NCBI GenBank assembly: GCA_045645405.1
Contig: JAZRIQ010000004.1
Coordinates: forward strand, 159,933 to 223,932
Length of the DNA: 64,000 nucleotides
Direction of reading: 5' to 3'
Source of the DNA: Eubacteriales bacterium
GTDB lineage: Bacteria; Bacillota; Clostridia; Oscillospirales; CAG-272
The notes beneath the pieces were generated by a model, which searched no databases, was not told the origin of the DNA, and saw only the letters and a list, made by a program, of their open reading frames with translations. Made by a program: the position numbers and the translations under genes. Below, piece by piece: positions 11,918-30,993 of this stretch; the stretch's first letter is position 1; each line of letters opens with the position of its first letter.

Positions 11918-11918
11918 T

Positions 11919-14936: not shown

Positions 14937-14942
14937 AGTATG

Positions 14943-16115: not shown

Positions 16116-16171
16116 AATTTGCTCCTTTTCTACGGAAGATAAATTTATCATTATGTTTAAAAACAAAAAAT

Positions 16172-16302
16172 AAAAGCCCACGGAATTCCGTGGGCTGATA
16201 CGCTTTCATAAGGTCTCATCTCTCGGAATTGGCACCTTGTCGCTCTCGATAGGTTGCCGTAACTTCTCAGGGCCTGTCCCTCCGTTACTCTTGATAAGAA
16301 TT
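16172..16302 (-). promoter_or_regulatory. SAM-I (S-box) riboswitch with terminator expression platform
   Basis: The minus strand reads UUCUUAUCAAGAGUAACGGAGGGACAGGCCCUGAGAAGUUACGGCAACC...GGUGCCAAUUCCGAGAGAUGAGA, matching the S-box core with P1 UCUUAUC/GAUGAGA. It is followed by the terminator AGCCCACGGAAUUCCGUGGGCUUUU (16175-16196) upstream of metK. Confidence 0.9.
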
Positions 16303-16314
16303 ATTTGCGTTGCA

Positions 16315-16343
16315 ATTATAGCACAATGTATTATAAATTGCAA
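16315..16343 (-). promoter_or_regulatory. Sigma-A promoter of the metK leader
   Basis: Minus strand: TTGCAA (16343-16338), a 17-nt spacer, then TATAAT (16320-15). It sits just upstream of the riboswitch. Confidence 0.55.
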
Positions 16344-16361
16344 TAGGTATTTTTAAATTTT

Positions 16362-16862
16362 TTAAAAAATTGCTATTGCACTATACGAAATAATCATCAT
16401 AATTATTCCGGAAATCATTACTCCAAACAAGCAAGATAAAAATGCCTTCCAAAATTTCATATCAATCATAGCAGAAACAAGAGAGCCTGTCCATGCACCC
16501 GTTATAGGCAAAGGGACAGCAACGTATAGGCAAACTCCCCAAAATGCATATTTTTCAATTCCCGCACGCTTTTTTTCAACCTTGCGTAGCAAAAAGCTTG
16601 CTACTTTATTGAAAAACTTGATTTTTGACAAAGACATCCATCTGATAACTTGCTTAATCAACAAAAGAATAAACGGTACAGGTACCATATTGCCAAGAAC
16701 GCTTAACAGATAAGTTTGCCACATTGGCATACCGAATGCAGCGCCCATAGGAACAGCACCTCTTAACTCAATAATAGGTATCATTGAGCAAAAAAACACG
16801 CAAAGCTCTTTTCCAACCGTTTCCAGAAAAAAGTTTTCTATAATTTCAGTAAATTCTGACAT
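16362..16862 (-). CDS. Small multidrug export-like membrane protein (COG2426-type)
   Basis: A 166-aa protein with 4-5 TM helices. The IPIIELRGAVPMG motif is typical of this family. Confidence 0.6.
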   Translation of the reverse strand: MSEFTEIIENFFLETVGKELCVFFCSMIPIIELRGAVPMGAAFGMPMWQTYLLSVLGNMVPVPFILLLIKQVIRWMSLSKIKFFNKVASFLLRKVEKKRAGIEKYAFWGVCLYVAVPLPITGAWTGSLVSAMIDMKFWKAFLSCLFGVMISGIIMMIISYSAIAIF

Positions 16863-16867
16863 TATAA

Positions 16868-18574
16868 CTATGCAAGATATTTGAGTGCAAGCTCATACAT
16901 AACCTTAATAAAGTCTTGTAGCTCGCCCTTCTTGCTCTCCTTTAAGTATAATTTAGAATACTCCTTAAGCCAAGCCTCAACATCACTTAAAATCACACCG
17001 CATTTTTCACCGCACTGTATTGAAACGAGCATAGATATCATATATTCAATACCCTGCGCAATTATTAAGAATGCTTCTCTTGCATCCTCATTTTCCCATT
17101 TAGCAGCCATCAAATAAGGAATAATTTCTTCACACTTATTAAAAGCTTCTTTTAGCGCATCAGTATCAGGGGTATTTGCACGCATTGCTTGATTATTGAA
17201 TTTTGTATTCGAATAATGAACGCATAAATTGTACCAGAAATTAGCTATATGTAAATTTGCTAATTTATTAATAATCTCGCCTGCACCCTCATAGCCGTAA
17301 TGTAAGAAATCAATAAGCTCATTGAAGTTGTCATATTTGCAGTTTACGTTCCATGCCTTTGCGCAAGCGTAAATTATACCGTACATACAGCTTTCAAGAG
17401 GTGAGGTATGGCCGTAATCTCCCCAGCAGGTAGTAAGCATACCGATAGCTTTAGCTTCATATCCGTATTCAGCCATTTTTGTAATATTTGGAATTGAACG
17501 CTGTGTTAGCTCCATAAGACTTGCCCAGTTGTTAAGTCCCGGACAAACGTATTGAGGCTTATTTGCGTTTTTAACCTTATTTATATTATTAGGTGACTCA
17601 TTAGGGCTATATCCCCAGCTTAAGAAGGTTAAGTCATTGTCAAGTTCATCTATAAATTCAGCATGTTGAGAAATAACGTCGCCCCACATCATTGGCTTTT
17701 TACCCTTTGATTTTACATGAGCTACGATTTTGTTAACGAAATTGATATATTCTCTTGCCTTGTCCTTACCGCTGTTTCTGCCATTACACAAATCAAATGT
17801 TTCATCACAGCAAATATTAAACTTATCACTTGTGAATAAAGGTGAATATTGATCAATAAGGCTTTTAATAAGCTCAATGCTTTCAGGATTCGATACGTCA
17901 ATAGTATGGTGACCCATTCTCTCAGCCCAATAAATCGCCTTAGGCTCATAGTCCTTGTATTCACATAAATCCTTGCGATTAAACTGTAAAAGCTCGTATA
18001 AATGTCCAAAGCAGGACAAAGAAGGAACCAACTCAATAAAGTTTTCTTTACAGTATTTATCCAGTTCAATAGTTTCTTCGGGAGTCATATAGCCTGTACG
18101 TTGATAAATTCCATCATATTCCTTAAATGGAAATACGTGTTCTACGTACAACTGAAGCATATTATGCTTATAATAAGCCAATGAATCAACAAGATTTTTT
18201 AACGTTTCAAGAGTAGGTACTCTACCTCTCGTTATGTCAAAATAAAAGCCTCTTACCTCAAAGTCAGGACAGTCAACGATTTCCTCGGCATCATAATATC
18301 CGTTTTTGATAATTTGGCGTAAGGTTTGAATAGCGTAGAAAGCACCCTGATAGCTTGGTGACCAAATTGAAATTTCATCATTCTTAAACGTAATTCTGTA
18401 GTTTTCCCCCTTACTGCCATTTACTGCGATCTTTACTACCGTTTCTCCTTCAGGTACTTTTTTTGCTAAGTTAATTACTCTTTTATCGCAGTTTTCAGGA
18501 AAAACAAACGTACAACCTTTGATTTCAGTTCTTGTTCCTTTTTTAATCTCTTTTACAGCCGGTATTAGTTTCAT
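16868..18574 (-). CDS. GH20-family beta-N-acetylhexosaminidase-like protein
   Basis: DCPDFEVRGFYFDITRG at the start of the catalytic TIM barrel, and a D-E pair in NICCDETF that corresponds to the GH20 HxGGDE motif. No signal peptide. Confidence 0.65.
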   Translation of the reverse strand: MKLIPAVKEIKKGTRTEIKGCTFVFPENCDKRVINLAKKVPEGETVVKIAVNGSKGENYRITFKNDEISIWSPSYQGAFYAIQTLRQIIKNGYYDAEEIVDCPDFEVRGFYFDITRGRVPTLETLKNLVDSLAYYKHNMLQLYVEHVFPFKEYDGIYQRTGYMTPEETIELDKYCKENFIELVPSLSCFGHLYELLQFNRKDLCEYKDYEPKAIYWAERMGHHTIDVSNPESIELIKSLIDQYSPLFTSDKFNICCDETFDLCNGRNSGKDKAREYINFVNKIVAHVKSKGKKPMMWGDVISQHAEFIDELDNDLTFLSWGYSPNESPNNINKVKNANKPQYVCPGLNNWASLMELTQRSIPNITKMAEYGYEAKAIGMLTTCWGDYGHTSPLESCMYGIIYACAKAWNVNCKYDNFNELIDFLHYGYEGAGEIINKLANLHIANFWYNLCVHYSNTKFNNQAMRANTPDTDALKEAFNKCEEIIPYLMAAKWENEDAREAFLIIAQGIEYMISMLVSIQCGEKCGVILSDVEAWLKEYSKLYLKESKKGELQDFIKVMYELALKYLA

Positions 18575-18583
18575 AATAAGTCC

Positions 18584-19429
18584 TCACTTAATTATTATTT
18601 CACGTCCTGCGCCTATTAAACCGCTCGACGTGGATATTTGCATTAAATTATCAGTAATTTTATACTCTTTTGCAGAGTGAATATGACCGCACAGCACAGC
18701 AATAAAGCGGTGGCTATTCTCTTTTACAAGATTTACAAATTCCATTGTATTATCATCGTCATTTTTTGTTCCCATAAAGAAATATGAACCGATTTTTTCA
18801 AGCATTATTTCACCGAACTCACCAAGCAAAAGCGGTTTATGCTCAATTAAAAGCAATTTTTTGTCAGAAAGAATTTTTTCTTTTAACAAATTTAATTGAC
18901 CATCAGTTATAGGAAGGTTGTTATCAACAGCAATTATTTCAAATTCTTCATAATCAAAGGCTTGAAAATAGGGGCTGGATGGGAATAAATCTTTTATTCT
19001 GTCATATTGATTTATATGCTCACCGTATTCATTCATACTGCAATGATTTCCGGGGCAATAAATTATTGGCAATGGAAACTTTTCAAAAAAGCGCTTTAAA
19101 TAACGAATATTACTCTCCGTTACTCTGTCCATTATATCACCGCTTAAAATAAGTGCATCAGCATTAAAATCGCAAGCATAATTACATAGCGCCTCAAAAA
19201 GCACATTTGCTTCAACATCATAGCGTTCATCACAAAACTCGTCGTTTTGATTAGCAAACTCAAGCTTCAATTTTTTCCACCCCTCAGAAGAACGCTTATG
19301 CTCGTTAACGTCAACTAAGGAGCTTTCGCTATCACAAAAAGAAAGGTGCAAATCGCTTATTTGAAAAAAACGGTATTCTCGTTTAAGACCTAAATTCAAT
19401 TCAGTTCTTTTAATTTGTAATAATCCCAT
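18584..19429 (-). CDS. Metallophosphoesterase
   Basis: Calcineurin-like motifs ISDLHLS, GDIMDR, GNHC and GHIHS. Confidence 0.75.
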   Translation of the reverse strand: MGLLQIKRTELNLGLKREYRFFQISDLHLSFCDSESSLVDVNEHKRSSEGWKKLKLEFANQNDEFCDERYDVEANVLFEALCNYACDFNADALILSGDIMDRVTESNIRYLKRFFEKFPLPIIYCPGNHCSMNEYGEHINQYDRIKDLFPSSPYFQAFDYEEFEIIAVDNNLPITDGQLNLLKEKILSDKKLLLIEHKPLLLGEFGEIMLEKIGSYFFMGTKNDDDNTMEFVNLVKENSHRFIAVLCGHIHSAKEYKITDNLMQISTSSGLIGAGREIIIK

Positions 19430-19590
19430 AGTGTCCTCTAAACAAAAAAATACACAATAATTATACTATAAAACGATACGTATGTCAATATTTATCGCTT
19501 TAAGTCGATGAAAATAATGTTTTTATAGCTGTTTTTCGACTATTTTTTCAGTTTTTTAATATTAAAATTTAAAAAAAGGACGGTGAAAAA

Positions 19591-19929
19591 ATGACAGGAT
19601 GTGAAAGCGTAGAGCTAATTTATGAAAAGCACGTGCTAAAGGTAAAAATCAGAGGCGATATTGACCATCACAGTGCTAAAGGAATACGAGACAAAATTGA
19701 CAACGCCATATTTACAAAAAAGCCGGCAATGATAGTGCTTGATTTAAGTGTTGTTGAATTTATGGATTCCTCGGGTCTTGGACTTATTATGGGCAGATAT
19801 ACTAATTCCTTGGAAATCGGTGCGAATTTTTTAATTTACAAACCTTGTGCTAAAGTTAAGAAGATACTTGAGCTTGCAGGAATTGAAAGAATTATGGAAA
19901 TTAAGGGAGATGACGACTATGAAGCGTAG
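19591..19929 (+). CDS. spoIIAA: Anti-sigma-F factor antagonist SpoIIAA
   Basis: STAS domain with the phosphorylatable-serine motif EFMDSSGLGLI. First gene of the spoIIA operon. Confidence 0.9.
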   Translation: MTGCESVELIYEKHVLKVKIRGDIDHHSAKGIRDKIDNAIFTKKPAMIVLDLSVVEFMDSSGLGLIMGRYTNSLEIGANFLIYKPCAKVKKILELAGIERIMEIKGDDDYEA

Positions 19930-20347
19930 TGAAAATTATATGAAGCTATATTTACCCTCAATATCAGTTAACGAGGGGCTCGCAAGGCAGGCGGTTTCTT
20001 CATTTATTGCGCAGTTAAATCCAACAATTGAGGAAATATCGGACATTAAATGTGCTGTCTCTGAAGCTGTTACAAATGCAATAGTACACGGATATAAATT
20101 CAGTGAAGGCATTATTTACATAAACGTTAAGTATTACAAGGATAGGACGGTAACCATTGAAATCAAGGATAACGGATGCGGTATTGAAGACGTAAGACTT
20201 GCTATGACACCTCTTTATACAACCGATACAACAGGCGAGCGAAGCGGTATGGGGTTTGCAGTTATGCAAACCTTTATGGATAAGCTTGACGTACGCTCTA
20301 TAAGCGGACAAGGTGTTCGCATTCTTATGAGTAAAAAACTAAGTTAA
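19919..20347 (+). CDS. spoIIAB: Anti-sigma-F factor / serine kinase SpoIIAB
   Basis: GHKL kinase boxes EAVTNAIVHGY, DNGCGI and GMGFAVM. The start at 19919 has a GGGAG Shine-Dalgarno and overlaps the spoIIAA stop; the ORF-track start at 19847 lies inside spoIIAA. Confidence 0.9.
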   Translation: MKRSENYMKLYLPSISVNEGLARQAVSSFIAQLNPTIEEISDIKCAVSEAVTNAIVHGYKFSEGIIYINVKYYKDRTVTIEIKDNGCGIEDVRLAMTPLYTTDTTGERSGMGFAVMQTFMDKLDVRSISGQGVRILMSKKLS

Positions 20348-20348
20348 A

Positions 20349-21071
20349 ATGGATTATAGTAATAAAAACAATGAGCTTTTAAGACTAGCCGTAAGCGGTA
20401 ATGAAGCGGCAACTGCAGAATTGATGGAAATAAATTTTGGTCTGGTAAGATCAATCGCGCTTCGATTTCGTGATAGGGGTGTTGAATACGAGGATTTAAT
20501 ACAAATCGGTTCGATAGGAATGTTGAAAGCAATTCGTAGCTTTGACCTTGAAAAAGGAACAGTTTTTTCGACCTATGCTGTTCCTCTTATAATCGGTGAA
20601 ATTAAACGGTTTATTCGTGACGACGGTCTTATAAAGGTTAGCCGAGTGTACAAACAGCAAGGCGCGATGCTTATGAGAGAAAGAGAAAAATTCACTAATG
20701 AAATGGGACGAGAGCCAAAAATTGAAGAGCTTGCTAAAAGATGCGGTTTAAGTGTTGAAGAAGCATCTGTTGCAATTGATGCTACGTCAACCGTAAATTC
20801 TCTGTCTGCATCTATAAACGGCGATGATGAAAGCTTTACACTTGAAAGCACTTTAAGTTCTCAAAAAAATGAAATAGATGCTAAAATTGAGCATATTGCT
20901 TTATCCCAGGCAATTTCTTCTCTTCCACCACTATGGCGACAGATTGTAACATTACGATATCTTAAGGAATATTCTCAACAAATTACGGCGGAGATACTTG
21001 GACTAACGCAAGTAAAGGTATCAAGAGAGGAAAAGAAAATTTTCGAGGCGTTGCGAAAGAAATTATCATAA
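20349..21071 (+). CDS. sigF: RNA polymerase sporulation sigma factor SigF
   Basis: Sigma-70 regions 2-4 (DLIQIGSIGMLKAIRSFD, YAVPLIIGEIKRFIRDDG). Third gene after spoIIAA and spoIIAB. Confidence 0.9.
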   Translation: MDYSNKNNELLRLAVSGNEAATAELMEINFGLVRSIALRFRDRGVEYEDLIQIGSIGMLKAIRSFDLEKGTVFSTYAVPLIIGEIKRFIRDDGLIKVSRVYKQQGAMLMREREKFTNEMGREPKIEELAKRCGLSVEEASVAIDATSTVNSLSASINGDDESFTLESTLSSQKNEIDAKIEHIALSQAISSLPPLWRQIVTLRYLKEYSQQITAEILGLTQVKVSREEKKIFEALRKKLS

Positions 21072-21076
21072 ACAAG

Positions 21077-21109
21077 AAGGAACTTTTGATTTTCAAAAGT
21101 TCCTTTTTT
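21077..21109. terminator. Bidirectional Rho-independent terminator
   Basis: Stem ggaacttttg pairs with caaaagttcc, followed by T6. It sits between convergent genes. Confidence 0.75.
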
Positions 21110-21623
21110 AGTTATGTTCTTTTTTACCTAATGTAATTTTTGATCGTTGTGAATAAACTATCGTTCCGTTATGAATTCCTTCATCAAATCCAAGACCACC
21201 AGTCAATTCTGTGCCATTTTCCAAAATTATGTACTTATGCCTATTACCTCTACAAACAGTAAACTCTCCATCATATATGAGATAATCTTTTATCACATAA
21301 TCTGTCCATCCCGGAATTACATAAAAAAACGACGGGACTATAATGGCAAATAGTAAAAGACAACAAATAAAAATTTCTAACCATATATCTTTTTTATCAA
21401 ATCTTTTTCGTTTCATCTTTTCAAATTTCTTTTTCGCATAAGGGTCGTTTTCTGCCTTGATTTTTAGCTTTTTATACACTTCTTTAGTTTTCTTATCTCT
21501 TTTATCAAAGAAAACAAAAAATCCCCAAACAGTAGCGGCTATGGCAATAGTTAGTATAAAAGTGAAACTTATGTTAGTAATCAGAAGATTTACTTCGTTT
21601 ATTTCAATTCCACTATATGTCAC
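21108..21623 (-). CDS. Hypothetical two-TM membrane protein
   Basis: A 171-aa ORF with two hydrophobic helices and a K-rich loop. No family recognised. Confidence 0.45.
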   Translation of the reverse strand: MTYSGIEINEVNLLITNISFTFILTIAIAATVWGFFVFFDKRDKKTKEVYKKLKIKAENDPYAKKKFEKMKRKRFDKKDIWLEIFICCLLLFAIIVPSFFYVIPGWTDYVIKDYLIYDGEFTVCRGNRHKYIILENGTELTGGLGFDEGIHNGTIVYSQRSKITLGKKEHN

Positions 21624-21743
21624 AAATACTTCACCTCTTCGAGGGTATTATACCACACCTTAGCAAACAAATCAAGATGAAACATAGCTGACTATACTTT
21701 GACTCACTTCTTATTGAAATAAACGGATTTTGACTCACTTTTT

Positions 21744-21852
21744 GACTATCTAAAGAGTAGGCAAAGAGTATGCAAAAAGTGGGTACTTTCCTTGTGGCAT
21801 AAGGAAAAAGACTACGTAAAGTACATACTCTTTGGGTACTCTTTACATAGTC
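21744..21852. repeat. Nested imperfect inverted repeat (about 109-nt extended hairpin) abutting tRNA-Leu
   Basis: Outer arms gactatctaaagagta (21744-59) and tactctttacatagtc (21837-52), 15/16 complementary. Inner arms caaagagtatg (21762-72) and catactctttg (21824-34), 11/11. Central arms ctttcctt and aaggaaaag. Confidence 0.65.
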
Positions 21853-21856
21853 TTTA

Positions 21857-21940
21857 TGGTGCAGGCGATGAGATTTGAACTCACAAGGTCAGACCATTGG
21901 CTTCTGAGACCAACGCGTATGCCAATTCCGCCACGCCTGC
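21857..21940 (-). tRNA. tRNA-Leu (anticodon CAG)
   Basis: The minus strand reads GCAGGCG-UG-GCGGAAUUGGCAUACGCG-U-UGGU CUCAGAA GCCAA-long variable arm-GAGUUCAAAUCUCAU-CGCCUGC-ACCA. It has a 7-bp acceptor stem, a U33-CAG-A37 anticodon loop, a class II variable arm and an encoded CCA. Confidence 0.9.
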
Positions 21941-21967
21941 GTATATGTAGCCCACTCTTGTAGGCTT

Positions 21968-22498
21968 TTATCTTATGAATACCTTTCGGTATGCATTTTT
22001 GCATTTAACAATAGTTGCAATTGCTTCTTCTCTACCGCAAATTTTATCTACTCTTGTTTCTTTATTTTCAAGGTATTTATAAATTTCAAAAAAGTGTTTA
22101 ATTTCTTGAAACTGGTGCTGCGGCAATTCTGAAATATCGGTATAATTATTTAAAAACGGATCATTCAAAGGAACTGCTATTATCTTTTCATCCTCATCAT
22201 TATCGTCAATCATTGTTATCATACCGATTGGATAGCATTCAAGTATAGAAAGAGGCGCTAACGTTTCTTGACAAAGGACTAAAACGTCAAGCGGGTCTCC
22301 ATCTTCAGAAAGTGTACGTGGAATGAACCCGTAGTTAGCGGGATAATGTGTTGAGGTATATAAAATCCTATCTAAACGAAGCATTCCGCTTTCTTTGTCT
22401 AATTCGTATTTATTCTTACTCCCCTTTGGGATTTCAATCACTGAAATAAAATTGTCAATTTTGATTCTTTCATCAGCAAAATCGTGCCATGGATTCAT
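21968..22498 (-). CDS. ppa: Inorganic pyrophosphatase (family I)
   Basis: IEIPKGSKNKYELD, YPANYGFIP and DGDPLDVLVL motifs. Confidence 0.93.
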   Translation of the reverse strand: MNPWHDFADERIKIDNFISVIEIPKGSKNKYELDKESGMLRLDRILYTSTHYPANYGFIPRTLSEDGDPLDVLVLCQETLAPLSILECYPIGMITMIDDNDEDEKIIAVPLNDPFLNNYTDISELPQHQFQEIKHFFEIYKYLENKETRVDKICGREEAIATIVKCKNAYRKVFIR

Positions 22499-22625
22499 AA
22501 AATCACTCCTACCACTCGATGTTTAATATTATATAACATTATTATTGTCGTGTCAATGAAAAAATTTGCAAAATAATAAAATTTATTTTTGTTTTTTTGG
22601 AAAGAATAATTTGCGAGGTGATAAT

Positions 22626-23921
22626 ATGGAATCAATTTGGCAAAATAACACAGATATACCGAAATTCAACTCGGTTTCTTCTGATTTTGACGTTGACGTT
22701 TTAATAATCGGCGGCGGACTTTGCGGCGTATTGTGCGCTTTTATGCTTAAAGAAGCGGGATTAAATTATGCTCTTGTTGAAAGTGATAAAATTTGCAATA
22801 AAACGACAGCGTACACAACTGCAAAAATAACCTCTCAGCATGGGTTTATTTATCACAAAATACTAAAAGCTCATGGAGTTGATTTTGCGAGATTGTATCT
22901 GGAATCAAATGAAAATGCAATTTCAAAATTCGAAAAGCTATCAAAAAGTTTCCAATGTGACTTTGAAAGAAAAGACAACTACGTTTATTCCCTAAATGAC
23001 AGGAATAAAATCGAAAAAGAGCTTGCAGCTCTTAATAAAATCGGATTTAACGATGCAAAATTTCACGAAAATCTTGATTTACCCTTCAAAAACTGCGGTG
23101 GAATATCATTTAAAAATCAAGCTCAATTCAACCCATTAAAATTCATATCACATATTGCAAAAGGATTAAATATATACGAAAATAGCCACGTTGGAGAGAT
23201 GATTGACAAAGTTGCGGTTATAAACGGTAAATATAAAATACGAGCAAAGAAAATCATAGTTACTACACACTTTCCGTTTATAAACAAGCATGGAGCTTTC
23301 TTTTTGAAAATGTTTCAGCACAGGTCATACGTTTTAGCCCTTAAAAATGCTCCTTTGGTTAATGGAATGTACGTAGATAACGATAAAAAAGGATTATCAT
23401 TCAGAAACTACGATAAATATTTGCTTTTGGGCGGAGGGAGTCATAGAACGGGCAAGGACGGAGGCGGCTTTTTAGAATTAGAGGAATTTGCAAAAAAATA
23501 TTTTCCAAAATCAACAGTAGAATATAAGTGGGCAACACAAGATTGTATAACACTTGACAACATGCCATATATTGGTAATTATTCAAAATCAACACCAAAT
23601 CTATATGTTGCAACAGGCTTTAATAAATGGGGCATGACAAGCAGTATGGTGGCTTCTGAAATTTTATGTGATTTGGTATCAGAAAAAGAAAATAAATACT
23701 CAAAAGTATTTTCTCCCTCAAGAAGCATTCTACACGTTCAGCTTGCTGTCAATACCTTTGAGTCATTAAAAGGTTTTCTAACATTAACTAAAAAACGCTG
23801 TCCTCACTTGGGGTGCGGTTTAACATGGAATAAATATGAGCATAGCTGGGATTGTAGCTGTCACGGTTCTCGTTTTGATGAGAACGGAAACGTTCTTGAT
23901 AATCCTGCAAATAAAAAATAG
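22626..23921 (+). CDS. FAD-dependent oxidoreductase with C-terminal Rieske [2Fe-2S] domain (YhfW-like)
   Basis: Dinucleotide-binding motif DVLIIGGGLCG and C-terminal Rieske ligands CPHLGC...CSCHGS. The start at 22626 has a GAGGTG Shine-Dalgarno. Confidence 0.8.
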   Translation: MESIWQNNTDIPKFNSVSSDFDVDVLIIGGGLCGVLCAFMLKEAGLNYALVESDKICNKTTAYTTAKITSQHGFIYHKILKAHGVDFARLYLESNENAISKFEKLSKSFQCDFERKDNYVYSLNDRNKIEKELAALNKIGFNDAKFHENLDLPFKNCGGISFKNQAQFNPLKFISHIAKGLNIYENSHVGEMIDKVAVINGKYKIRAKKIIVTTHFPFINKHGAFFLKMFQHRSYVLALKNAPLVNGMYVDNDKKGLSFRNYDKYLLLGGGSHRTGKDGGGFLELEEFAKKYFPKSTVEYKWATQDCITLDNMPYIGNYSKSTPNLYVATGFNKWGMTSSMVASEILCDLVSEKENKYSKVFSPSRSILHVQLAVNTFESLKGFLTLTKKRCPHLGCGLTWNKYEHSWDCSCHGSRFDENGNVLDNPANKK

Positions 23922-23940
23922 CCTAAACGGCTATTTTTTC
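23913..23940. terminator. Rho-independent terminator
   Basis: Stem atagcc pairs with ggctat, flanked by an A-run and T6. It sits between convergent genes. Confidence 0.6.
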
Positions 23941-23949
23941 TATTTAATT

Positions 23950-24420
23950 TTAACCGTTTTTTAAATTTTCAAGCAAATTATTTAAATAATTTTCTAAAAC
24001 GAAAATAGCATCCTTTATTTCTTTTGGAGTTAAATTTTTCTTACCGATTTCATCAATTTGCTTTAAAATATCATTCCTTTTCTCACATAGATCTTTTCCC
24101 TTTTCGGTCAGATAAACTCTTATGCATCTCATATCGTAGCTATCGGTTATACGGCTTACAATTCCTTTTTCTTCAAGCTTTGCCAAAGTTACGCTAATTG
24201 TAGAGCCTTTCAAATGTGTAACTCTTACAAGCTCATTTTGTGTTTGACCGTCCTGTTTTACTAAAACCTCTAAAATAAATCTGGAAGCTTTTTGATTCAA
24301 AAATTCATCTTTAGAAATTTTAGCAATTTGTTCCTCATATACCTTGGATAATAAATTCGTAAGCGAAATTATCGGAGTGCTTGAAACGGCTTCTTTATCA
24401 ACAAGTTCAAATTCATTCAT
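23950..24420 (-). CDS. MarR family transcriptional regulator
   Basis: Winged-helix core QTQNELVRVTHLKGSTISVTLAKLEEKGIVSR...D.R in a protein of about 150 aa. Confidence 0.85.
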   Translation of the reverse strand: MNEFELVDKEAVSSTPIISLTNLLSKVYEEQIAKISKDEFLNQKASRFILEVLVKQDGQTQNELVRVTHLKGSTISVTLAKLEEKGIVSRITDSYDMRCIRVYLTEKGKDLCEKRNDILKQIDEIGKKNLTPKEIKDAIFVLENYLNNLLENLKNG

Positions 24421-24599
24421 TAAAATAACCTCTTATTTCAAAGTCAGTTATGACATTATATATTATTTTTCAAATCTTGTCAACCTAAATTATATTTAAA
24501 AATTTGGCATTTAATTTCATACTCCTATGAAATTGTCAAACATAAATTTATAGTAATAACACAAATTAAATATGAACAAAGTTGAAAGGACTAAATAAA

Positions 24600-25652
24600 A
24601 TGAAATTTAATAAAAAAATTTTATGTCTTATCTCTTTTATTTTAGTTTTTCTTTGCTTCGCAAGTAGCGTTGGAGCAATAGACTACGTTTATAATAAAAA
24701 AGATAAGACAGAAACGGATTTATCAGATATTGAATTATACCCCGGCGGTATGCCCTTCGGCGTTAAAATTCAAATAAAAGGCTTGCAGGTGGTTAAATTC
24801 AATGAAGGAAATTCTCCGGCACGTTCAGCAGGTATAAAACCGGGTGACTTAATTACAAAAGTAAATAATATCGAGATTGAAAGTATTGAAAATTTTTCAA
24901 ATTTAATAAACAAATCAAACGGCAAAGATATCACAATAACCGTAGTAAGAAATGATAAAGAAATAAATTTTAAAGTTAAGCCAATATATGATAGCGATGA
25001 GGGAAAATATAAAACAGGCGTTTGGATTAAAGATTCTACGTCTGGAATCGGAACTGTTACATTTATAAATCCCGAAAATAACGCTTTTGGCGGCTTAGGA
25101 CACGGAATTTGCGACAGTTACACAGGAAAAGTAATAGAATTATCAAGAGGGACAGTTCTCGATGTTAAAATTAACGGAGTTTTAAAAGGACAAATAGGTA
25201 AGGCGGGGGAATTAAAAGGAACATTTAACACTAAAAAAATAGGTACTTTGAATAAAAATTCCGCCTGTGGCGTTTTTGGTTTTCTCTCTTCAATGCCAAC
25301 CGCTCCCGAAAACAAGCTTAAGCTTTGCCCTAAAAACGAAGTAAAAGCATCAAATGCATATATTTGGTGTACCTTAAGTGACGAAGCCCCACAAAAATAC
25401 TCCATTCAAATTTCTGATATTGACTTAAGTAACGGTGGATACAAAAATTTTAAAATTAAAATTACGGATAAAAGACTATTAGAGCGTTCGGGAGGAATTG
25501 TGCAGGGTATGAGCGGAAGTCCTATAATACAAGACGGCAGATTAGTCGGTGCAGTTACACACGTTTTAATAAACGACCCCACAGAGGGATATGGAATTTT
25601 TATTGAAAATATGCTGAACGCCGCACAAATGCCCTTGGCAAAGGCATCATAA
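24600..25652 (+). CDS. spoIVB: SpoIVB signalling serine peptidase (S55); the last 47 codons are supplied by repeat and cassette DNA
   Basis: Signal-anchor N-terminus, PDZ domain (GIKPGDLITKVNN), and protease domain with [24 protein letters not shown]. The ATG at 24600 is preferred over the TTG at 24582. Confidence 0.9.
   Translation: MKFNKKILCLISFILVFLCFASSVGAIDYVYNKKDKTETDLSDIELYPGGMPFGVKIQIKGLQVVKFNEGNSPARSAGIKPGDLITKVNNIEIESIENFSNLINKSNGKDITITVVRNDKEINFKVKPIYDSDEGKYKTGVWIKDSTSGIGTVTFINPENNAFGGLGHGICDSYTGKVIELSRGTVLDVKINGVLKGQIGKAGELKGTFNTKKIGTLNKNSACGVFGFLSSMPTAPENKLKLCPKNEVKASNAYIWCTLSDEAPQKYSIQISDIDLSNGGYKNFKIKITDKRLLERSGGIVQGMSGSPIIQDGRLVGAVTHVLINDPTEGYGIFIENMLNAAQMPLAKAS
25510..25620 (+). 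repeat. Left copy of the 111-bp direct repeat (spoIVB codons SGSPIIQ...ENMLN)
   Basis: Same sequence as 30007-30117. The first 85 nt or so are identical by eye, with 3 mismatches near the 3' end. Confidence 0.9.
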
Positions 25653-25682
25653 CGTGGTAAAACAGGAAAATATATGAAAAAA

Positions 25683-25738
25683 GTTGTCCCTTTTGTAACA
25701 CACCAAACGAGTGTGATATAATAGGGACAACAGTTTTT
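25683..25738 (+). terminator. Cassette-borne terminator now serving spoIVB
   Basis: Stem gttgtccct (25683-91) pairs with agggacaac (25723-31), with an inner cacac/gtgtg stem, followed by T6. Confidence 0.6.
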
Positions 25739-25784
25739 TGTCATGAGTTATTCAATTTTGTGTGTTGTCTCTGTTATAACCCAC

Positions 25785-26567
25785 TCACGGCAATGAACGA
25801 TGCCGTTTTACGATTTGACTCGGAGGAATCCCCACCCGTTTTGTGAATTCTCTTGAGAAATGGCAGGGTTCGGCATAACCGCATAGTGTGGCAATTTCAG
25901 CAATCGAAAAATCGTCTGACTTCAATAAATTTTTGGCATAATCCATTCTCTTTTGTATCATATATTCCTTTGGCGACACACCAAAGGAATTCAAAAATAT
26001 CTTTCTGAAATACACCTCGCTTATTCCGCAGAGCGAGGCAAGATAAGAAATGTTCAGAGAATTATCGGTAAACTGTTGATTAATCACATCAACGGCAGGA
26101 TCGATGATCAAACGTTGAGTTTTGGGCACATACTGCCTGTGTATTTCTTTTTGAGCCTTGTAAACGGCATCATAAACAGCTCGCATAGCAAGAGCAACAC
26201 GTAAGTTATCCTTAATTTTCCAAGAGTCAGCTGCCGCCTTGAAATTGTGTAATAGCTTTTCTGCATTTCTTAAGGATACGCAAAAGGGCTCGTCGGAAAT
26301 ATCCGCGGCAAAATTGATAGCATAACAACCGCCGTTTCGGATTTGTTCTACATGATAAGAAGAACCTTTTGGCAAATAAAACAAGCTATTCCCTTCGGTT
26401 CTCATAGCATATCCGTTGTCAAAGCAATAATCTCTGACAACCTCGGAATCGTTTAGTACAAATCCGTGAAACGGACGGTTTTTATGTATATGCCTTCCCG
26501 TGTTCGGTGCCACGTAAACGGCAACACTGATTTCGGTTATTACGGCGGACTCCCATAGCTTGTTCAT
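25785..26567 (-). CDS. AraC family transcriptional regulator
   Basis: Cupin-like N-terminal domain and a C-terminal double HTH (ISYLASLCGISEVYFRKIF...IAEIATLCGYAEPCHFSREF). The start at 26567 lies 6 nt after a GAGGTG Shine-Dalgarno. It is divergent from the GRE gene. Confidence 0.85.
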   Translation of the reverse strand: MNKLWESAVITEISVAVYVAPNTGRHIHKNRPFHGFVLNDSEVVRDYCFDNGYAMRTEGNSLFYLPKGSSYHVEQIRNGGCYAINFAADISDEPFCVSLRNAEKLLHNFKAAADSWKIKDNLRVALAMRAVYDAVYKAQKEIHRQYVPKTQRLIIDPAVDVINQQFTDNSLNISYLASLCGISEVYFRKIFLNSFGVSPKEYMIQKRMDYAKNLLKSDDFSIAEIATLCGYAEPCHFSREFTKRVGIPPSQIVKRHRSLP

Positions 26568-26631
26568 TCTCATCACCTCGATTGAATTATACAATACAGT
26601 TTCGATTTCGTCAAGTGTTTTCTTTTATTCA

Positions 26632-26659
26632 TTTACAATATCCAACAATATGATATAAT
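26632..26659 (+). promoter_or_regulatory. Candidate promoter of the GRE operon
   Basis: TTTACA (26632-37), a 16-nt spacer, then TATAAT (26654-59), in the AT-rich divergent intergenic region. Confidence 0.35.
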
Positions 26660-26695
26660 GTAAGATAATAAACAAACCATTTACGGAGGTTATTC

Positions 26696-28900
26696 ATGAA
26701 ATATATCCGTCAAGTCGATTTCGAATATATCATCAACAAATACCACGACACATCAAAGCCCTTTGACGGTTATGCGCGTTTTATACGCCGAGACGAGCTG
26801 TTTACGCCCGAAACGGGATCGGCTCCCGACGATATCATTTCGGGGATATTGAAAAACGACAAATCGTATCAAAGCCTGCCTCATTGCATACGCAAGGCTC
26901 GCGCACTCGAATACGTTTTGAAAAACACAAGAATTTCTTGTGATAAACGTGACATATTCCCCGCAATCAACATGGTAGACCGTCCCCTTTCCAAAGCTCT
27001 TATTTCCCATTGGAATCACGAGGTAACATGCGGCACCGTTCCAGAAATTGAGAAGCGCCGCGCACAGCTTGAAAAGGACGGTGCCGTTACAATTTGGCTT
27101 GATTACGACCACAGCGTTCCCGTTTGGGACAGACTTTTTGAGCTTGGATTTATCGGAATTTTAGAGGAAAGCGAAACGGTACGCAAAAACAGACAGCTTA
27201 CCGAAAAGGAAGATGCGTTTTTCGAGGGGATCAAAATAACGTATGAGGCTCTTCTTATATTTATAGAACGTCTTGAAAAAATGGCAACCACCGACAAAAT
27301 GAGAAACGCCCTTCATGCTCTCCGCTATGGAGCACCTCGGAGCTTTTACGAGGCACTGCTTCTTTCCTACATTTATTTTATGATCAGCGAACATATCGAC
27401 AATCTGCAGGTACGCTCGCTTTCGGGATTTGATACTTCTTTCTATCAATTTTATCGGAACGATATAAAAAATGGCATCTCCGCGGACGAGATCAAAAGCG
27501 ACCTTGCATACTATCTTATGCAATTCACGGCAATCGGCAATTATTGGAATCAGCCCGTGTATCTCGGCGGTGAAAACGCCGACGGTTCGAGCGTCATAAA
27601 TGAACTGTCTTATCTTTTCCTCGACGTTTACGACGAGATGAATATCTACAATCCAAAAATACAGATCAAGGTATGCGAGTCAACCCCGAAGGCTATTTTA
27701 CTCAAGGCACTTGATATGATCCGCCGAGGCAGAAACAGTATAGTATTTGTCTCGGACGCTACAATTCGAAAGGCACTTGAAGGAGTAGGCTGTACTGCCG
27801 ACGGGGCAAGAACCTGCAACATCACCGGCTGTTACGAATATTCGCCACAAGGATCCTACAACACGGGTATGAATTATCTGAATATGCTAAAGCCCCTGGA
27901 GTATACGCTTCACCGAGGGTGTGACGGCATAACAGGCGTGTTTTCAGGACTCGAAAGCCCCGATATTTCCCAATACACAACATTCGAGCATTTGTATGCA
28001 GAATACAAGAGACAATTACTTCGTATCATAGACGTCACTGTAGAAACTGCCAACGGACTTGAACGGTATCTCTCCGAAATCAACCCGTTGTCCCTGCTCT
28101 CGGCAACGTTTTCCTCTTGTCTTGATAAAGCCAAGGACGCGATCGGCGGCGGTAGCGGCAACAACGATTCGCTGCTCATGTTCGGCTTTCTCGGAGACAT
28201 TACCGATTCGCTTATGATGATAAAAAAACACGTATATGAAAATAACGACCTGACGCTTGACGAGCTTGTGTCGACTTTGGATAAAAACTTTGAGGGCAGC
28301 GAAATTCTTCGCAGAAAGCTTCTATCCGACCGCGAAAAGTGGGGTAACAACAAGGAGCGCCCCGATGCGATCGCGGTGGATCTTGTGAATTTTATAACGT
28401 CAAATCTTTGCGGCAGACCGAACACCCGTGACGGCGCGTGGAACTGTGGCTTCCACGTAGCGCGTATGTCCTACACGCAGGGTAAAAAAACTGCCGCAAG
28501 TGCAAATGGGAGAGCTTTTGGAGAAGAGCTATCCAAGAATATTTCGGCATCCATGGGGCAAAACAGAGAGGGTGCTACCGCCGCAATCCTCTCGGCAACT
28601 AAAATTGATGCCACCTCATTTACCTGTGACGCCGCGCTCGACCTCGGCTTGCTTCCTTCCGCTGTTAAAGGCGACGATGGACTCGAGGCTATGTACGGTC
28701 TGATTATGACCTTCTGCAAGCGAGGCGGTCACGCGCTTCACATCAATGTATTTGATGCCGACACCCTTCGCGATGCGCAAGCTCATCCCGAAAAGTATCA
28801 AGATCTTCAGATTCGCGTCTGCGGCTGGAACGTGCTTTGGAACAATATCAATAAAGAAGAACAGGACGGCTTTATCCGTCAGGCAGAGGCCTTGATTTAA
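26696..28900 (+). CDS. Glycyl radical enzyme (PFL2/dehydratase-like family), substrate unknown
   Basis: GRE fingerprints: PVYLGGENADGSSVINELSYL; Cys loop CNITGCYEYSP (C379 and E381, codons 27830-32 and 27836-38); ANGRAFGEELS; C-terminal GGHALHINVFDADTLRDAQAHPEKYQDLQIRVCGWN (G710, codon 28823-25). Confidence 0.88.
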   Translation: MKYIRQVDFEYIINKYHDTSKPFDGYARFIRRDELFTPETGSAPDDIISGILKNDKSYQSLPHCIRKARALEYVLKNTRISCDKRDIFPAINMVDRPLSKALISHWNHEVTCGTVPEIEKRRAQLEKDGAVTIWLDYDHSVPVWDRLFELGFIGILEESETVRKNRQLTEKEDAFFEGIKITYEALLIFIERLEKMATTDKMRNALHALRYGAPRSFYEALLLSYIYFMISEHIDNLQVRSLSGFDTSFYQFYRNDIKNGISADEIKSDLAYYLMQFTAIGNYWNQPVYLGGENADGSSVINELSYLFLDVYDEMNIYNPKIQIKVCESTPKAILLKALDMIRRGRNSIVFVSDATIRKALEGVGCTADGARTCNITGCYEYSPQGSYNTGMNYLNMLKPLEYTLHRGCDGITGVFSGLESPDISQYTTFEHLYAEYKRQLLRIIDVTVETANGLERYLSEINPLSLLSATFSSCLDKAKDAIGGGSGNNDSLLMFGFLGDITDSLMMIKKHVYENNDLTLDELVSTLDKNFEGSEILRRKLLSDREKWGNNKERPDAIAVDLVNFITSNLCGRPNTRDGAWNCGFHVARMSYTQGKKTAASANGRAFGEELSKNISASMGQNREGATAAILSATKIDATSFTCDAALDLGLLPSAVKGDDGLEAMYGLIMTFCKRGGHALHINVFDADTLRDAQAHPEKYQDLQIRVCGWNVLWNNINKEEQDGFIRQAEALI

Positions 28901-28939
28901 GAAAGGAAGGCTTTCGAAACGAAAGCCATGGTCATAATA

Positions 28940-29176
28940 ATGGAAAAGAAAAAGGTTTTACTTATTGGCGATTCTATAAGAATGGGATACGATAAATACG
29001 TAAAAAATTATCTTGCCGATTCTTGCGAAGTTTATTATCCCAAGGACAACTGCCGTTTTGCACAGTACACCCTAAGACACTTGAGCGATTGGAAAATTTG
29101 CGAGATGCTTGACATAGAATACAGAGAATTTACGTTAGCCGATTATGAAAGCGTCAAAGAGGTTATAGGTCTGTAA
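28940..29176 (+). pseudogene. SGNH/GDSL hydrolase N-terminal fragment (about 78 aa)
   Basis: KKVLLIGDSIRMGY is SGNH block I, but the ORF stops after about 80 aa, whereas family members are about 200 aa. G+C is locally lower than in the neighbouring GRE genes. Confidence 0.45.
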
Positions 29177-29997
29177 TGAAAGGCATCATTTTTGAAATCA
29201 AACGCTTTGCCGTTCACGACGGTGACGGTATCCGCACAACGGTATTCTTCAAGGGCTGTCCGCTGCGGTGTGTATGGTGTCACAACCCCGAGGGGCTTTC
29301 ACGGAAGCCGCAGGAGGCGTTTTACAAGCATAAATGCATCGGTTGCGGAGAATGCAAAAAGGAAGGCTTCGCTCCCGAGGATTGCCTTGGCGAGGCGCGC
29401 ATCCTTTACGGCAAGGCGGTCACCGTTGATGAATTATTACCTATGCTTTTGGAGGACAAGGATTTCTACGAGACTTCAGGCGGCGGTGTCACACTTTCGG
29501 GTGGCGAATGTCTGATGCAAGCCGACTTCTGCACGGAGCTTTTGATGCGATTGAAGGAAAACGGCATACACACCGCCGTTGACACGTGTGGATTTGTATC
29601 AAAAAACGCTTTGGATAATGTGATTCCATACACCGACGTATTTCTTTACGACGTGAAAGCATACGACGAGGACGTACATATCAAATGTACGGGGGTATCA
29701 AATAAGCAGATACTTGAAAATCTCATATATTTGGATTCCAAGGGGAAGGATATTGAAATCCGCATTCCCTACGTGCCCGATTATAACGACGGTCAGATTG
29801 AGAAAATTGCTTACTTCCTCGCACAGCTTAAAAGCATCGCAAAAATACGCGTGCTGCCGTATCACGATTATGCAGGCTCAAAATACGAGGCTCTTAGCAT
29901 AAAAAACACCTTGCCAGGCCGGTTACCCACAGATGAAGAACTCGAAGCAGCAAGATATTTGATAAAAAATATCACAAAATTTGTTGTCCCTTCTTGA
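29176..29997 (+). CDS. Glycyl-radical enzyme activating protein (radical SAM)
   Basis: [29 protein letters not shown] (CX3CX2C at C28, C32 and C35), an auxiliary CIGCGEC...C motif, and the GGEC SAM-binding motif. The start overlaps the upstream stop (TAATGA). Confidence 0.88.
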
Positions 29998-30006
29998 CCA
30001 CACTCG

Positions 30007-30117
30007 TGAGCGGAAGTCCTATAATACAAGACGGCAGATTAGTCGGTGCAGTTACACACGTTTTAATAAACGACCCCACAGAGGGATATGGAATTTTCAT
30101 AGAAAATATGCTTAACG
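30007..30117 (+). repeat. Right copy of the 111-bp direct repeat
   Basis: Matches 25510-25620 at an offset of 4,497 bp in the same orientation. Confidence 0.9.
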
Positions 30118-30194
30118 AAATGCCTGAAATTTTAAAACAAAGAAAATTTTGGAATTTAAAAACTTGTATAAATATGAGCATATTTTGTCAATAA
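30007..30194 (+). pseudogene. Displaced original 3' end of spoIVB (SGSPII...[30 protein letters not shown])
   Basis: The spoIVB reading frame stays open from the repeat to the stop at 30192-94 in AT-rich, host-like DNA. There is no Shine-Dalgarno or plausible start, and the rest of the protease is missing. Confidence 0.75.
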
Positions 30195-30219: not shown

Positions 30220-30993
30220 ATGCATTATAACAAGGTTGAAATTTGTGGAGTTAATACCTCCAATTTAAAGGTTTTAAAGGAAGAAGAAAAAAGACGTATG
30301 CTTGCTGAGGCAAAGTGCGGCAACTATAAATCACGTGAAGCTTTGATTGACGGAAATTTAAGGTTGGTGCTTTCAATAATTCAAAGATTTTCCTCAAGAA
30401 AAGAAAATATGGACGATTTATTTCAAGTTGGTTGCATCGGACTTATAAAAGCAATTGACAATTTTAATACAGAGCTGGACGTGAAGTTTTCCACTTATGC
30501 CGTCCCGATGATTATAGGCGAGGTAAGACGTTATTTGAGAGATAACAATTCTATAAGAGTTTCAAGATCGGTAAGAGATTTAGCATATAAAGCATTACAA
30601 GCACGAGAAGAATTAACAAGAGAAAGCTTTCAAGAGCCAACGGTTGAACAAATAGCAGAAAGATTAAACGAAAAAAAGGAAGCTATTGTTTCTGCACTGG
30701 AAGCAATTAGCGAGCCTGTTTCTCTCTATGAGCCTGTTTTTAATGACTCCGGTGACTCACTTTACATTATGGATCAATTAAAAGACGCAGGCTCAGATGA
30801 TGAATTATGGATTGAGGATATTGCTCTTAAGGAAGCAATAAAAACTCTTAACGAGCGCGAGAAGAAAATTATAGATATGCGCTTTTATGCAGGTAAAACT
30901 CAAAGTGAAATTGCAAATGAAATAGGCATTTCTCAAGCTCAGGTATCAAGACTTGAAAAATGCGCATTAGAAAGATTAAAAAAGCAAATTTAA
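30220..30993 (+). CDS. sigG: RNA polymerase sporulation sigma factor SigG
   Basis: N-terminal VEICGVNTSNLKVL, then GNLRLVLSIIQRF, FQVGCIGLIKAIDNF and YAVPMIIGEVRRYLRDN, which are SigG-type. AGGAG Shine-Dalgarno upstream. Confidence 0.9.
   Translation: MHYNKVEICGVNTSNLKVLKEEEKRRMLAEAKCGNYKSREALIDGNLRLVLSIIQRFSSRKENMDDLFQVGCIGLIKAIDNFNTELDVKFSTYAVPMIIGEVRRYLRDNNSIRVSRSVRDLAYKALQAREELTRESFQEPTVEQIAERLNEKKEAIVSALEAISEPVSLYEPVFNDSGDSLYIMDQLKDAGSDDELWIEDIALKEAIKTLNEREKKIIDMRFYAGKTQSEIANEIGISQAQVSRLEKCALERLKKQI

Follow-up and report, generated by a model that had tools for sequence, protein, structure and literature searches.

Elements of the skin and SPbeta type split a sporulation gene, carry their own serine or tyrosine recombinase, and excise in the mother cell to rebuild the gene. 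The present analysis concerns another arrangement in another sporulation gene, spoIVB, which encodes the SpoIVB peptidase. In a stretch of 64,000 nucleotides from a Eubacteriales bacterium (assembly GCA_045645405.1, contig JAZRIQ010000004.1, positions 159,933 to 223,932; hereafter the window), a 4.5-kb cassette is inserted at the codon of the catalytic serine. Intervening elements of sporulation genes (PMC5595907, PMC10747680) include skin in sigK, SPbeta in spsM, gin in gerE and yin in yabG. The spoIVB cassette resembles skin, SPbeta and gin in having entered a sporulation gene in an endospore former, yet it differs from them in that the window spoIVB is intact and that no recombinase was found in the 64-kb window.

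A Campbell-type insertion into a coding gene, in which an alternative 3' end is supplied and the original end is left downstream, is represented by e14 in icd (the remnant, icdC, measures 165 nt). Likewise, at the window spoIVB the 3' end of the target is duplicated and the element-borne copy is joined to the gene. However, e14 has intE and xisE and is a single, prophage-sized element, whereas the spoIVB cassettes are arrayed and no integrase was found in them.

Among the streptococci, cis-mobilizable elements (CIMEs) and the accretion of integrative and conjugative or integrative and mobilizable elements (ICEs, IMEs) provide examples of units that lie between attachment (att) sites where a conserved gene ends and that, integrating in succession, leave arrays in which partial gene ends are repeated; some of these units lack recombination genes and rely on the integrase of a neighbour. 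Accretion at a conserved gene end also applies to the tandem ssrA islands of Dehalococcoides (PMC3146451). In these systems an integrase-bearing relative is found in the same array or species, whereas none was seen in about 1 Mb of spoIVB arrays; moreover, the spoIVB units are far smaller and end in one 28-nt motif (here called M), whatever their cargo.

Integrative mobile elements exploiting Xer (IMEX; CTXphi, VGJ, TLC and the gonococcal island, which use XerCD at dif) also have no recombinase of their own and form tandem arrays at one site. Their recombinase is encoded elsewhere in the genome, and the same is proposed here for the spoIVB cassettes; the target is dif in the former and the catalytic-serine codon of spoIVB in the latter. 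No resemblance between M and the Firmicute dif site is known.

Integrons offer the following likenesses: small recombinase-less cassettes at a fixed chromosomal site, arrays growing from the proximal end, a conserved recombination-associated motif ending each cassette, toxin-antitoxin and unknown cargo, and decay of the older units. There are also differences. In integrons intI adjoins attI, whereas no Phage_integrase was found at the spoIVB sites (205 cluster representatives and 48 window open reading frames, ORFs). The integron attC is an imperfect palindrome that folds, whereas M is a linear conserved sequence with an unfolded junction, and the hairpin of the spoIVB cassettes (H) lies at the opposite end of the cargo from M and is missing from many of them. 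Integron cassettes are mostly promoterless, while those of spoIVB usually bring regulators and promoters. Finally, the spoIVB insertion lies inside a protein-coding gene, each cassette supplying a replacement 3' end, and the hosts are Clostridia, not Proteobacteria.

The duplicated 3' end of spoIVB

The features on which the argument depends are listed below, where F denotes the spoIVB 3' fragment from the catalytic-serine codon and M the cassette-end motif of about 28 nt; M-F is their junction, and L-numbers (L001 etc.) are labels of compared loci or contigs.

24582..25652, + strand: functional spoIVB (SpoIVB peptidase, PDZ and S55; TIGR02860 332 bits, cutoff 305; PF05580 E = 4e-78)
25510..25620, + strand: left repeat copy (F), from the TG before the catalytic-serine codon; host-to-donor switch at about 25590-25615
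25621..25676, + strand: imported spoIVB tail (AAQMPLAKAS*, stop 25650-52) and spacer, from alignment to L067
25677..25740, no strand: hairpin H, consisting of an A-run, M1 (25683-25703), a loop, inverted M2 (25711-25737) and a T-run (-27.8 kcal/mol, z = -6.3)
25764..25784, + strand: third motif copy M3 (GTTGTCTCTGTTATAACCCAC), adjoining the stop of the AraC gene and conserved in other H modules
29982..30008, + strand: cassette-end motif M (TGTTGTCCCTTCTTGACCACACTCGTG), read from the sequence, overlapping the activase stop and fused to the serine codon of the displaced fragment
30007..30117, + strand: right repeat copy (F), the native, displaced spoIVB 3' end; first 91 nt as in the left copy
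30118..30194, + strand: native spoIVB tail (EMPEILK...), ancestral TAA changed to CAA (30138-40), from alignment to empty-site relatives
30220..30993, + strand: sigG, the original downstream neighbour of spoIVB (NF006071 E = 6e-124)

A repeat search of the window returned a 111-nt direct repeat (25510-25620 and 30007-30117; 97% identity, spacing 4497 nt), the only two-copy family of long direct repeats in this region; a repeat of such length and identity in 64 kb is far beyond chance. Identity begins at a TG (25510-11 and 30007-08) that completes the Met codon of GMSGSP and immediately precedes the catalytic-serine codon AGC (25512-14 and 30009-11), and ends past the Asn codon of ...ENMLN. The first 91 nt contain no mismatch, the three mismatches (25601/30098, 25604/30101 and 25616/30113) are all synonymous, and a stretch of 36 residues is encoded identically by both copies. 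Downstream of the left copy come the ten codons AAQMPLAKAS* and then a strong hairpin, while the frame of the right copy extends to 30194, 25 nt short of sigG, the lost stop letting it run 18 more codons. The functional gene encodes 356 aa with a complete S55 domain and an unbroken reading frame. In a sliding profile the GC content is 0.40-0.53 within the insert versus 0.26-0.37 in the flanks, and it amounts to 0.446 for the cassette (25677-30008) versus 0.349 for the remainder of the window. A preliminary description of this locus, made from the letters alone, had reported the 4,497-bp spacing and three mismatches of the repeat, the two different continuations of the frame, and the GC-richer DNA between the copies; all of these were reproduced, and the gene names given there, spoIVB (TIGR02860) and sigG (NF006071), were confirmed by profile search. 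An assembly artefact is very unlikely as the source of the duplication, because the same architecture is found in more than 70 independent assemblies, which excludes a local misassembly.

The nearest SpoIVB relatives are 70-73% identical and have C-termini of the form ...ENMLS(A/E)MPEILK*. Three genus-level relatives (L129, L130 and L131) have the order MarR(-)-spoIVB-80 nt-sigG-NUDIX/HIT(-)-FkbM and no cassette, and provide the empty site, with spoIVB running into sigG, that the preliminary description had anticipated. The synteny of the window is theirs plus 4.5 kb; its sigG leader is conserved with these relatives, and its sigG is 92% identical in amino acids to that of L129. On alignment with these loci, the 4.5-kb segment is shown to be an insertion and the right copy to be the native spoIVB 3' end (by its MPEILK tail and the conserved sigG leader). 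The left tail and the cargo are foreign. Another relative of the window host, L074 (sigG 81% identical, shared HIT-FkbM synteny), carries a different cassette, of the AAA_14 type, that ends in M-F at the same site before sigG. With L129-L131 empty and both L074 and the window occupied, one host family therefore has empty sites and at least two different occupants.

Both repeat copies are, over their first 80 nt or so, closest to the empty-site relatives (83.5% to L129). In the functional gene, the 5' part and about 80 nt past the serine codon are of host type; imported are the tail and some 20 nt at the end of the repeat. The GC-richer genome L067 has, in its native spoIVB 3' end and spacer, a sequence 97.7% identical to positions 25595-25682. 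The left copy is thus a mosaic, of host type to about 25590 and L067-like from somewhere in 25590-25615 until about 25692. From about 25705 the best relative becomes L136 (95.5% over 3.4 kb), the breakpoint lying in the first arm or loop of the hairpin (about 25692-25705). The L136 cassette, whose cargo is 95.5% identical, belongs to another host context, of 44% GC; to the cassette of L001 the cargo is 87% identical. The AAQMPLAKAS-type tail occurs also in L007, L008, L016, L038 and many other loci. Because the switch between host and donor falls inside the repeat, the latter has certainly undergone homologous recombination or gene conversion.

The preliminary description had proposed the Campbell-type entry of a circle bearing its own spoIVB 3' end. 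The two-copy structure is as expected of such an entry and the left tail is imported; its assignment of the two copies holds for the native right copy and for the tail of the left one, but the donor sequence starts at about 25590-25615 and not at the serine codon. The displaced right copy has at most three private changes (30098, 30101 and the lost stop) in about 45 nt past position 91 and none before; 30098 and 30101 differ from the left copy and from L129/L130, the ancestral state being ambiguous at both. Since private changes lie only beyond nucleotide 91, they suggest that the left, functional copy keeps converting the displaced one, within a tract bounded by the first mismatch.

Cassette arrays in uncultured gut Clostridia

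The architecture of spoIVB followed by at least one cassette, with very varied cargo, was found in at least 69 other species-level genomes. A scan for M with one genome per species gave at least 119 stretches, all from uncultured Clostridia, Eubacteriales or Oscillospiraceae of animal or human guts, and a scan of metagenomes added 66 stretches, with 34 further M-F junctions. Full spoIVB with its cassette or cassettes was seen in 32 loci, and M-F junctions with the same motif and the same point of fusion occur in more than 80 cases with unrelated cargo. The window insert is thereby confirmed as a real member of a large, apparently undescribed cassette family. The recombinase-less insert of the preliminary description is real, and the arrangement is widespread rather than a singleton.

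All insertions are at the codons for GMSGSP in spoIVB, and arrays at this single site are present. L003/L004 have, in order, spoIVB, an AraC-GRE-activase cassette (GRE, glycyl-radical enzyme), an S55 fragment, an IclR-GRE-activase cassette, an S55 fragment and Fic/Phd. In L008 spoIVB is followed by two AraC-GRE-activase cassettes, a fucosidase with a sugar kinase, and spo0A; an S55 fragment was found after the first cassette and none was detected after the second. L007 has four different cassettes separated by five spoIVB fragments, and L001 has three decayed fragments; in both the fragments are intact near the gene and decayed distally. In L136, spoIVB is followed by a Fic cassette and then by the closest relative of the window cassette. 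At the other extreme, L032 holds an almost empty unit of 266 nt (F, tail, a hairpin of the repetitive extragenic palindromic or REP type, and M-F).

About 120 loci were mapped, and spoIVB was found in at least three host neighbourhoods, namely ABC-ABC-MarR, SipL-HprK-lipoprotein (U366-HprK-SipL) and a 314-aa unknown (U314), the genes upstream varying with the host lineage. The units measure 0.27-5.7 kb and usually have their own regulator and a divergent promoter. Their cargo comprises AraC-GRE-activase, AraC-enzyme-EamA, Fic/Phd, an AAA_14/DUF4143 ATPase with a small ORF, leucine-rich-repeat proteins of the BspA type, XRE-SIS-unknown, SDR/GFO sugar genes and FAD oxidoreductases.

Two kinds of small repeat were observed in passing. 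A palindromic insert of about 50 nt (ACGCAATGTTTGCAAAGCAAACTTGCCACGGAGCAAAGCGGAATTGCGT and variants), which resembles a tiny site-specific repeat or a miniature inverted-repeat transposable element (MITE), interrupts displaced fragments at one constant point, between ...LVG and AVTHV (L027 in its F2 copy, L022, L095, L107, L109, L042). GC-rich REP-like hairpins (GTAGGG...CCCTAC; translation ...ILLASFAAQAAALRA...) recur in spacers and decayed spoIVB fragments, often directly after SGSPII or GYGIFI (L032 2925-3005; L013, L015, L048, L078, L106, L117, L030, L146, L188; L001 3740-3990; L136 8925-8950).

Motif M and its junction with spoIVB

Each cassette ends in M (TGTTGTCCYTNNTTGAMCACACTCGTG), which always joins an older spoIVB 3' fragment at one and the same nucleotide. 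Every intact or mildly decayed fragment begins at the same codon, that of the catalytic serine, and is preceded by the consensus TGTTGTCC(C/T)T..TTGA(C/A)CACAC...TG. M occurs in two contexts. In the first, represented by 82 junctions in 73 loci, NNNTG, the serine codon and the 3' end of spoIVB come after M, and the frame is uninterrupted in 63 junctions; truncated fragments still hold 12-18 nt of F after M. In the second, two convergent copies form hairpin H directly past the spoIVB stop, as at window 25677-25740, where it looks like a bidirectional terminator. Across 81 distinct junctions, the 28 nt or so ahead of the serine codon carry nearly maximal information, and the sequence further upstream about none. 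As DNA the M-F junction has no fold (-4.9 kcal/mol, z = +1.2).

The chromosomal left arm (...GGNGGNATHGTNCARGGNATG) and M have only TG in common. Furthermore, the fragment after M and the F of the resident gene can differ throughout, even in the serine codon (AGC versus TCG), so that the junction offers no more than 2 nt of homology. Shared blocks of high identity stop at +0 to +14 from M-F in several genome pairs, e.g. L003/L068 and L007/L010, and begin, on the other side, in the loop or second arm of the M-derived hairpin H; in L010 the fragment after M is identical to the genome's own gene over about 36 comparable nt. Because M-F is conserved, the homology is limited to TG, and shared blocks end near M and H, the alignments favour M as a site of precise DNA joining.

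All four window copies of the 8-mer core of M lie in the cassette. Contrary to the preliminary description, which saw no terminal inverted repeats, M stands at the right end and an inverted M pair at the left, and a 32-nt inverted repeat of 78% identity (25707-25738 versus 29976-30007) links the cassette ends. In many cassettes (L001, L003, L027, L112) the M-derived hairpin is replaced by a second conserved terminator (AAAAAGGCAATATC-loop-GATATTGCCTTTT), which is common to genomes of very different GC content; as judged from sequence, the modules of spoIVB tail plus terminator comprise at least two exchangeable families.

Other roles and relationships of M were considered. A DNA-uptake sequence was rejected, as M occurs only at these arrays; so was a similarity to dif/Xer sites, the sole resemblance being the AT-rich Pro-Ile-Ile codons of this host. 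Dyad symmetry of M with the beginning of F amounts to 5 of 27 positions and is not significant. As a separate observation, the search pattern for M also matches an unrelated recurrent sequence (...CACAC attcc TTGTCAGGGACGATAGCAATATGATAGCG) in non-gut metagenomes, with no spoIVB after it (L102, L143, L145, L180, L189, L203; JGI contigs Ga0308407, Ga0124918, Ga0068705, Ga0308310, Ga0272449).

Search for recombinases and mobile relatives

The genes of the window cassette and the 25 commonest protein clusters around the arrays have no recombinase or transposase domain in Pfam, nor did Pfam annotation of L001, L003, L007, L008 and L136 reveal a recombinase. Regular-expression motifs of serine and tyrosine recombinases had no match. 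Neither had phmmer seeds (lambda Int, phiC31 Int, IntE, IntF, PinE, YagL, YagA, IS1, IS5, IS30), but phmmer proved insensitive in a seed-versus-seed control and Pfam scans with spiked controls were therefore used instead, in which the remaining 205 cluster representatives from about 120 loci and 48 ORFs covering the rest of the window were pooled with known recombinases and transposases. These scans returned the control counts only (Phage_integrase 6, Resolvase 6, rve 6, DDE_Tnp_1 3, DDE_Tnp_IS1 3), and for the Recombinase family just the 3 spiked controls, in the two batches in which it was among the 25 top families listed. Within the families screened, neither a tyrosine or serine recombinase nor a DDE transposase was found in about 1 Mb around the sites or in the 64-kb window, so that the statement of the preliminary description on the 4.5 kb can be extended to the whole window.

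Motif M was not found in 2.9 million viral contigs. Phage and plasmid collections, queried with 25500-25810, yielded no attP-like fragment and only complete spoIVB genes. No circular contig was found among short contigs, and no autonomous integrase-bearing relative for the same site was found in the genome loci or, by motif and seed screens only, in the metagenome loci. The collection records with a complete spoIVB (PLSDB/INPHARED MT835715, MT835614, MT838563, MT837510 and OY725880) also have spo0A and dipicolinate synthase genes; filed as plasmid or 'Bacteriophage sp.', they look like misclassified chromosomal contigs. Monoglobus pectinilyticus NZ_OY725742.1 (L141) has a plain spoIVB-spo0A arrangement.

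A proposed site-specific step and homologous recombination

The explanation favoured here, to which I would give an even chance, has two layers: a recombinase acting in trans would join circles at M-F, and homologous recombination and gene conversion would then operate among the F repeats. In this model, 25590-30008 represent one horizontally acquired cassette of a spoIVB-accreting family in a clade of uncultured gut Clostridia. A unit consists of a replacement spoIVB 3' end (F) with tail and terminator, a cargo usually provided with a regulator, and M; in the circle M would adjoin F. One reciprocal exchange with the chromosomal spoIVB would insert the unit, the gene then reading into the imported F and tail and its former 3' end remaining as a fragment directly after M; repeated entry would produce arrays with the newest cassette beside the gene. 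M-F would be the site of a site-specific recombinase encoded elsewhere, by the host or a helper element, and RecA-type recombination between F copies would add homogenisation, cassette loss and some integrations. In the window, the first 80-90 nt or so of the left copy would later have become host sequence by conversion, or else the crossover heteroduplex would have reached the homology border. That the 2-nt common core would suit a serine recombinase is speculation.

The homologous layer is demonstrable on alignment, because the fragments are mosaics: F identity within a locus is 0.51-0.98 (median 0.85) versus a median of 0.71 between loci, with patchy mismatches. The conserved sequence of M and its constant point of fusion suggest an additional site-specific step catalysed in trans. 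Somewhat more tentative, with odds a little below even, is the wider proposal that spoIVB may be the docking site of an integron-like platform of gene capture, where a distantly encoded recombinase would join M to the serine codon, rebuilding the protease gene and stacking self-regulated metabolic, toxin-antitoxin, surface-protein and ATPase cassettes.

Several points weigh against the site-specific step. The recombinase is postulated, and none was identified in screens that extended over about 8 kb per locus and were aimed at families other than HUH, IS110 and certain further transposases. The majority of loci came from searches with M itself, and its universality is therefore partly by construction; L001, L003, L007, L008 and L136 were located through the GRE protein, not the DNA motif, and five of five have M. 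The breakpoints are not at one position, the switch in the window left copy lying inside F. In AAA_14 cassettes, about 104 nt of F after M are co-inherited with the cargo in nine loci (including L074), followed by host-specific tails, an outcome that would be expected of homologous crossovers in F. Finally, both window copies are of host type over 91 nt, and a single reciprocal exchange is therefore insufficient without an extra conversion step.

Homologous recombination alone, which is less probable than the two-layer process, would explain the missing recombinase and the scattered breakpoints. Under this alternative, RecA acting between two F copies of a donor array would yield F-tail-terminator-cargo-M circles, which would arrive by transformation, transduction or conjugation of neighbouring DNA and enter by a single crossover between F and spoIVB; the fusion of M to the serine codon would have been made once in an ancestor and inherited, M being kept for another reason, e.g. 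as a half-site of a terminator or insulator. Such a course is consistent with the recombinase-free screens, with breakpoints scattered in F (+0-14, +50, about +80-105, +104/105 and +134), with the switch of the window left copy in the most conserved stretch of F (GGAATTTTTATTGA.AATATGCT), with the mosaic or homogenised F copies within genomes, and with the L074 junction, where donor-type F is followed by the host tail; branch migration to the homology border would explain conversion tracts ending exactly at the serine codon. However, F is just 111-140 nt long and 70-80% identical between hosts, and L067 and the host lineage have identical runs of at most 17 nt, a very poor substrate for RecA, yet 95%-identical cargo is common to hosts of 33% and 44% GC. 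M itself has no consistent coding frame and is unstructured at the junction, yet, unlike the adjacent DNA, it is conserved across 33-60% GC and with unrelated cargo. Moreover, shared blocks end within 0-14 nt of M in several pairs, one breakpoint falls within M1, whose 21 nt are too few for homologous recombination, and the alternative does not account for the placing of dozens of unrelated cargos between terminator and M.

Much less probable is a non-autonomous, transposon-like unit at 25707-30007, with termini 5'-(A)CGAGTGTG...CACACTCG(T)-3' and a transposase in trans, either a DDE enzyme (TG...CA ends, target choice beside a conserved gene end as in Tn7) or an HUH enzyme acting at the hairpin. 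It would make sense of the imperfect 32-nt inverted repeat, of the L136 block, which starts in the hairpin loop and M2 and not at F, of block edges at the hairpin loop in other pairs, and of the several M-like sites at one end against one at the other. Yet no target-site duplication is present at 25706/30008, M3 has the wrong orientation for a Tn7-like end, and no transposase was found in the Pfam scans of the families screened. Many cassettes with the other terminator (AAAAGGCAATATC...GATATTGCC) have no left inverted M and still end in M-F, and the constant F after M is left unexplained.

Last and least probable, a decayed prophage or ICE that had carried an integrase and targeted spoIVB would follow the classical precedent of gene-targeting elements that restore a 3' end (e14 in icd), but it is opposed by the lack of an integrase near any of about 82 junctions and 59 or so spoIVB 3' ends, by cassette-sized units with intact, regulated cargo, and by the results for viral contigs and for phage and plasmid collections given above. 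Equally improbable is an assembly artefact, given the recurrence in independent assemblies.

Two further candidates were dropped: recombination between hairpin H and the gene would split spoIVB, and a target-site duplication of about 100-200 nt does not agree with the different tails of the two window copies.

Novelty and implications

Full-text literature searches returned no paper linking spoIVB with an integration site and none describing such arrays. Measured against the systems outlined above, recombinase-less accretion at a conserved gene end is of a known kind (integron-, IMEX- or CIME-like), the spoIVB version being what is new; the chances are substantial that both enzyme and site are new as well. 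If the site-specific step is real, it implies a new recombination site and enzyme and chromosomal cassette arrays without a cis-encoded recombinase, of a kind not known to have been described in Firmicutes. It would also explain the spread of accessory genes among abundant uncultured gut Clostridia of 33-60% GC, namely GREs of anaerobic catabolism, Fic/Phd toxin-antitoxin pairs, BspA-type surface proteins and sugar-utilisation genes, M being a simple search key to the variable gene pool of these Clostridia. If homologous recombination alone is at work, a short conserved coding segment would serve as a portable homology arm for exchange between genera, its repeats being in concerted evolution.

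Cargo of the window cassette and neighbouring features

The genes carried between hairpin H and M are the following.

25785..26594, - strand: AraC-family regulator (PF12833 E = 2e-19)
26696..28900, + strand: GRE, 734 aa, of an uncharacterised clade (PF02901 and PF01228)
28928..29176, + strand: remnant of an SGNH/GDSL hydrolase, 82 aa, with about 408 nt deleted at about 29096 relative to L001 and L136
29176..29997, + strand: GRE activase, radical SAM (TIGR02494 292 bits)

Taken together, the cargo has the hallmarks of a GRE system, i.e. a fold like that of pyruvate formate-lyase, a C-terminal glycine-radical motif and a radical-SAM activase. The translated GRE retains the RVCGW glycine-radical motif and a GCYE motif but reaches none of the NCBIfam subfamily cutoffs; among solved structures, HypD and the B12-independent glycerol dehydratase are nearest to it, and its homologues (more than 1000) are nearly all from uncultured Clostridia. 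Exact-protein look-ups with the window GRE and SpoIVB matched no record, and homologues were used. The activase and the AraC regulator are both intact, and promoter-like sites lie in a divergent promoter region (about 26586-26659) between the AraC and GRE genes. The hydrolase is full length in L001 (214 aa); because its gene is cut by the deletion in the window, the window GRE operon may lack one function present in relatives. An Rfam search of 24.4-30.4 kb found no known RNA.

Elsewhere in the window, an ORF at 12646-14850 (- strand), also of exactly 734 aa, encodes a RecD2-type helicase unrelated to the GRE, the same length being coincidental. In the empty-site relatives (L129 4400-5900) MarR-spoIVB comes directly after the spoIIIA operon, while in the window about 14 kb (9400-24000) separate spoIIIAH from MarR, a second rearrangement nearby; these 14 kb contain GH5, a phosphoribosyltransferase, RecD2, MetK, GH20, a metallophosphatase, spoIIAB-sigF, a pyrophosphatase and an FAD/Rieske protein.

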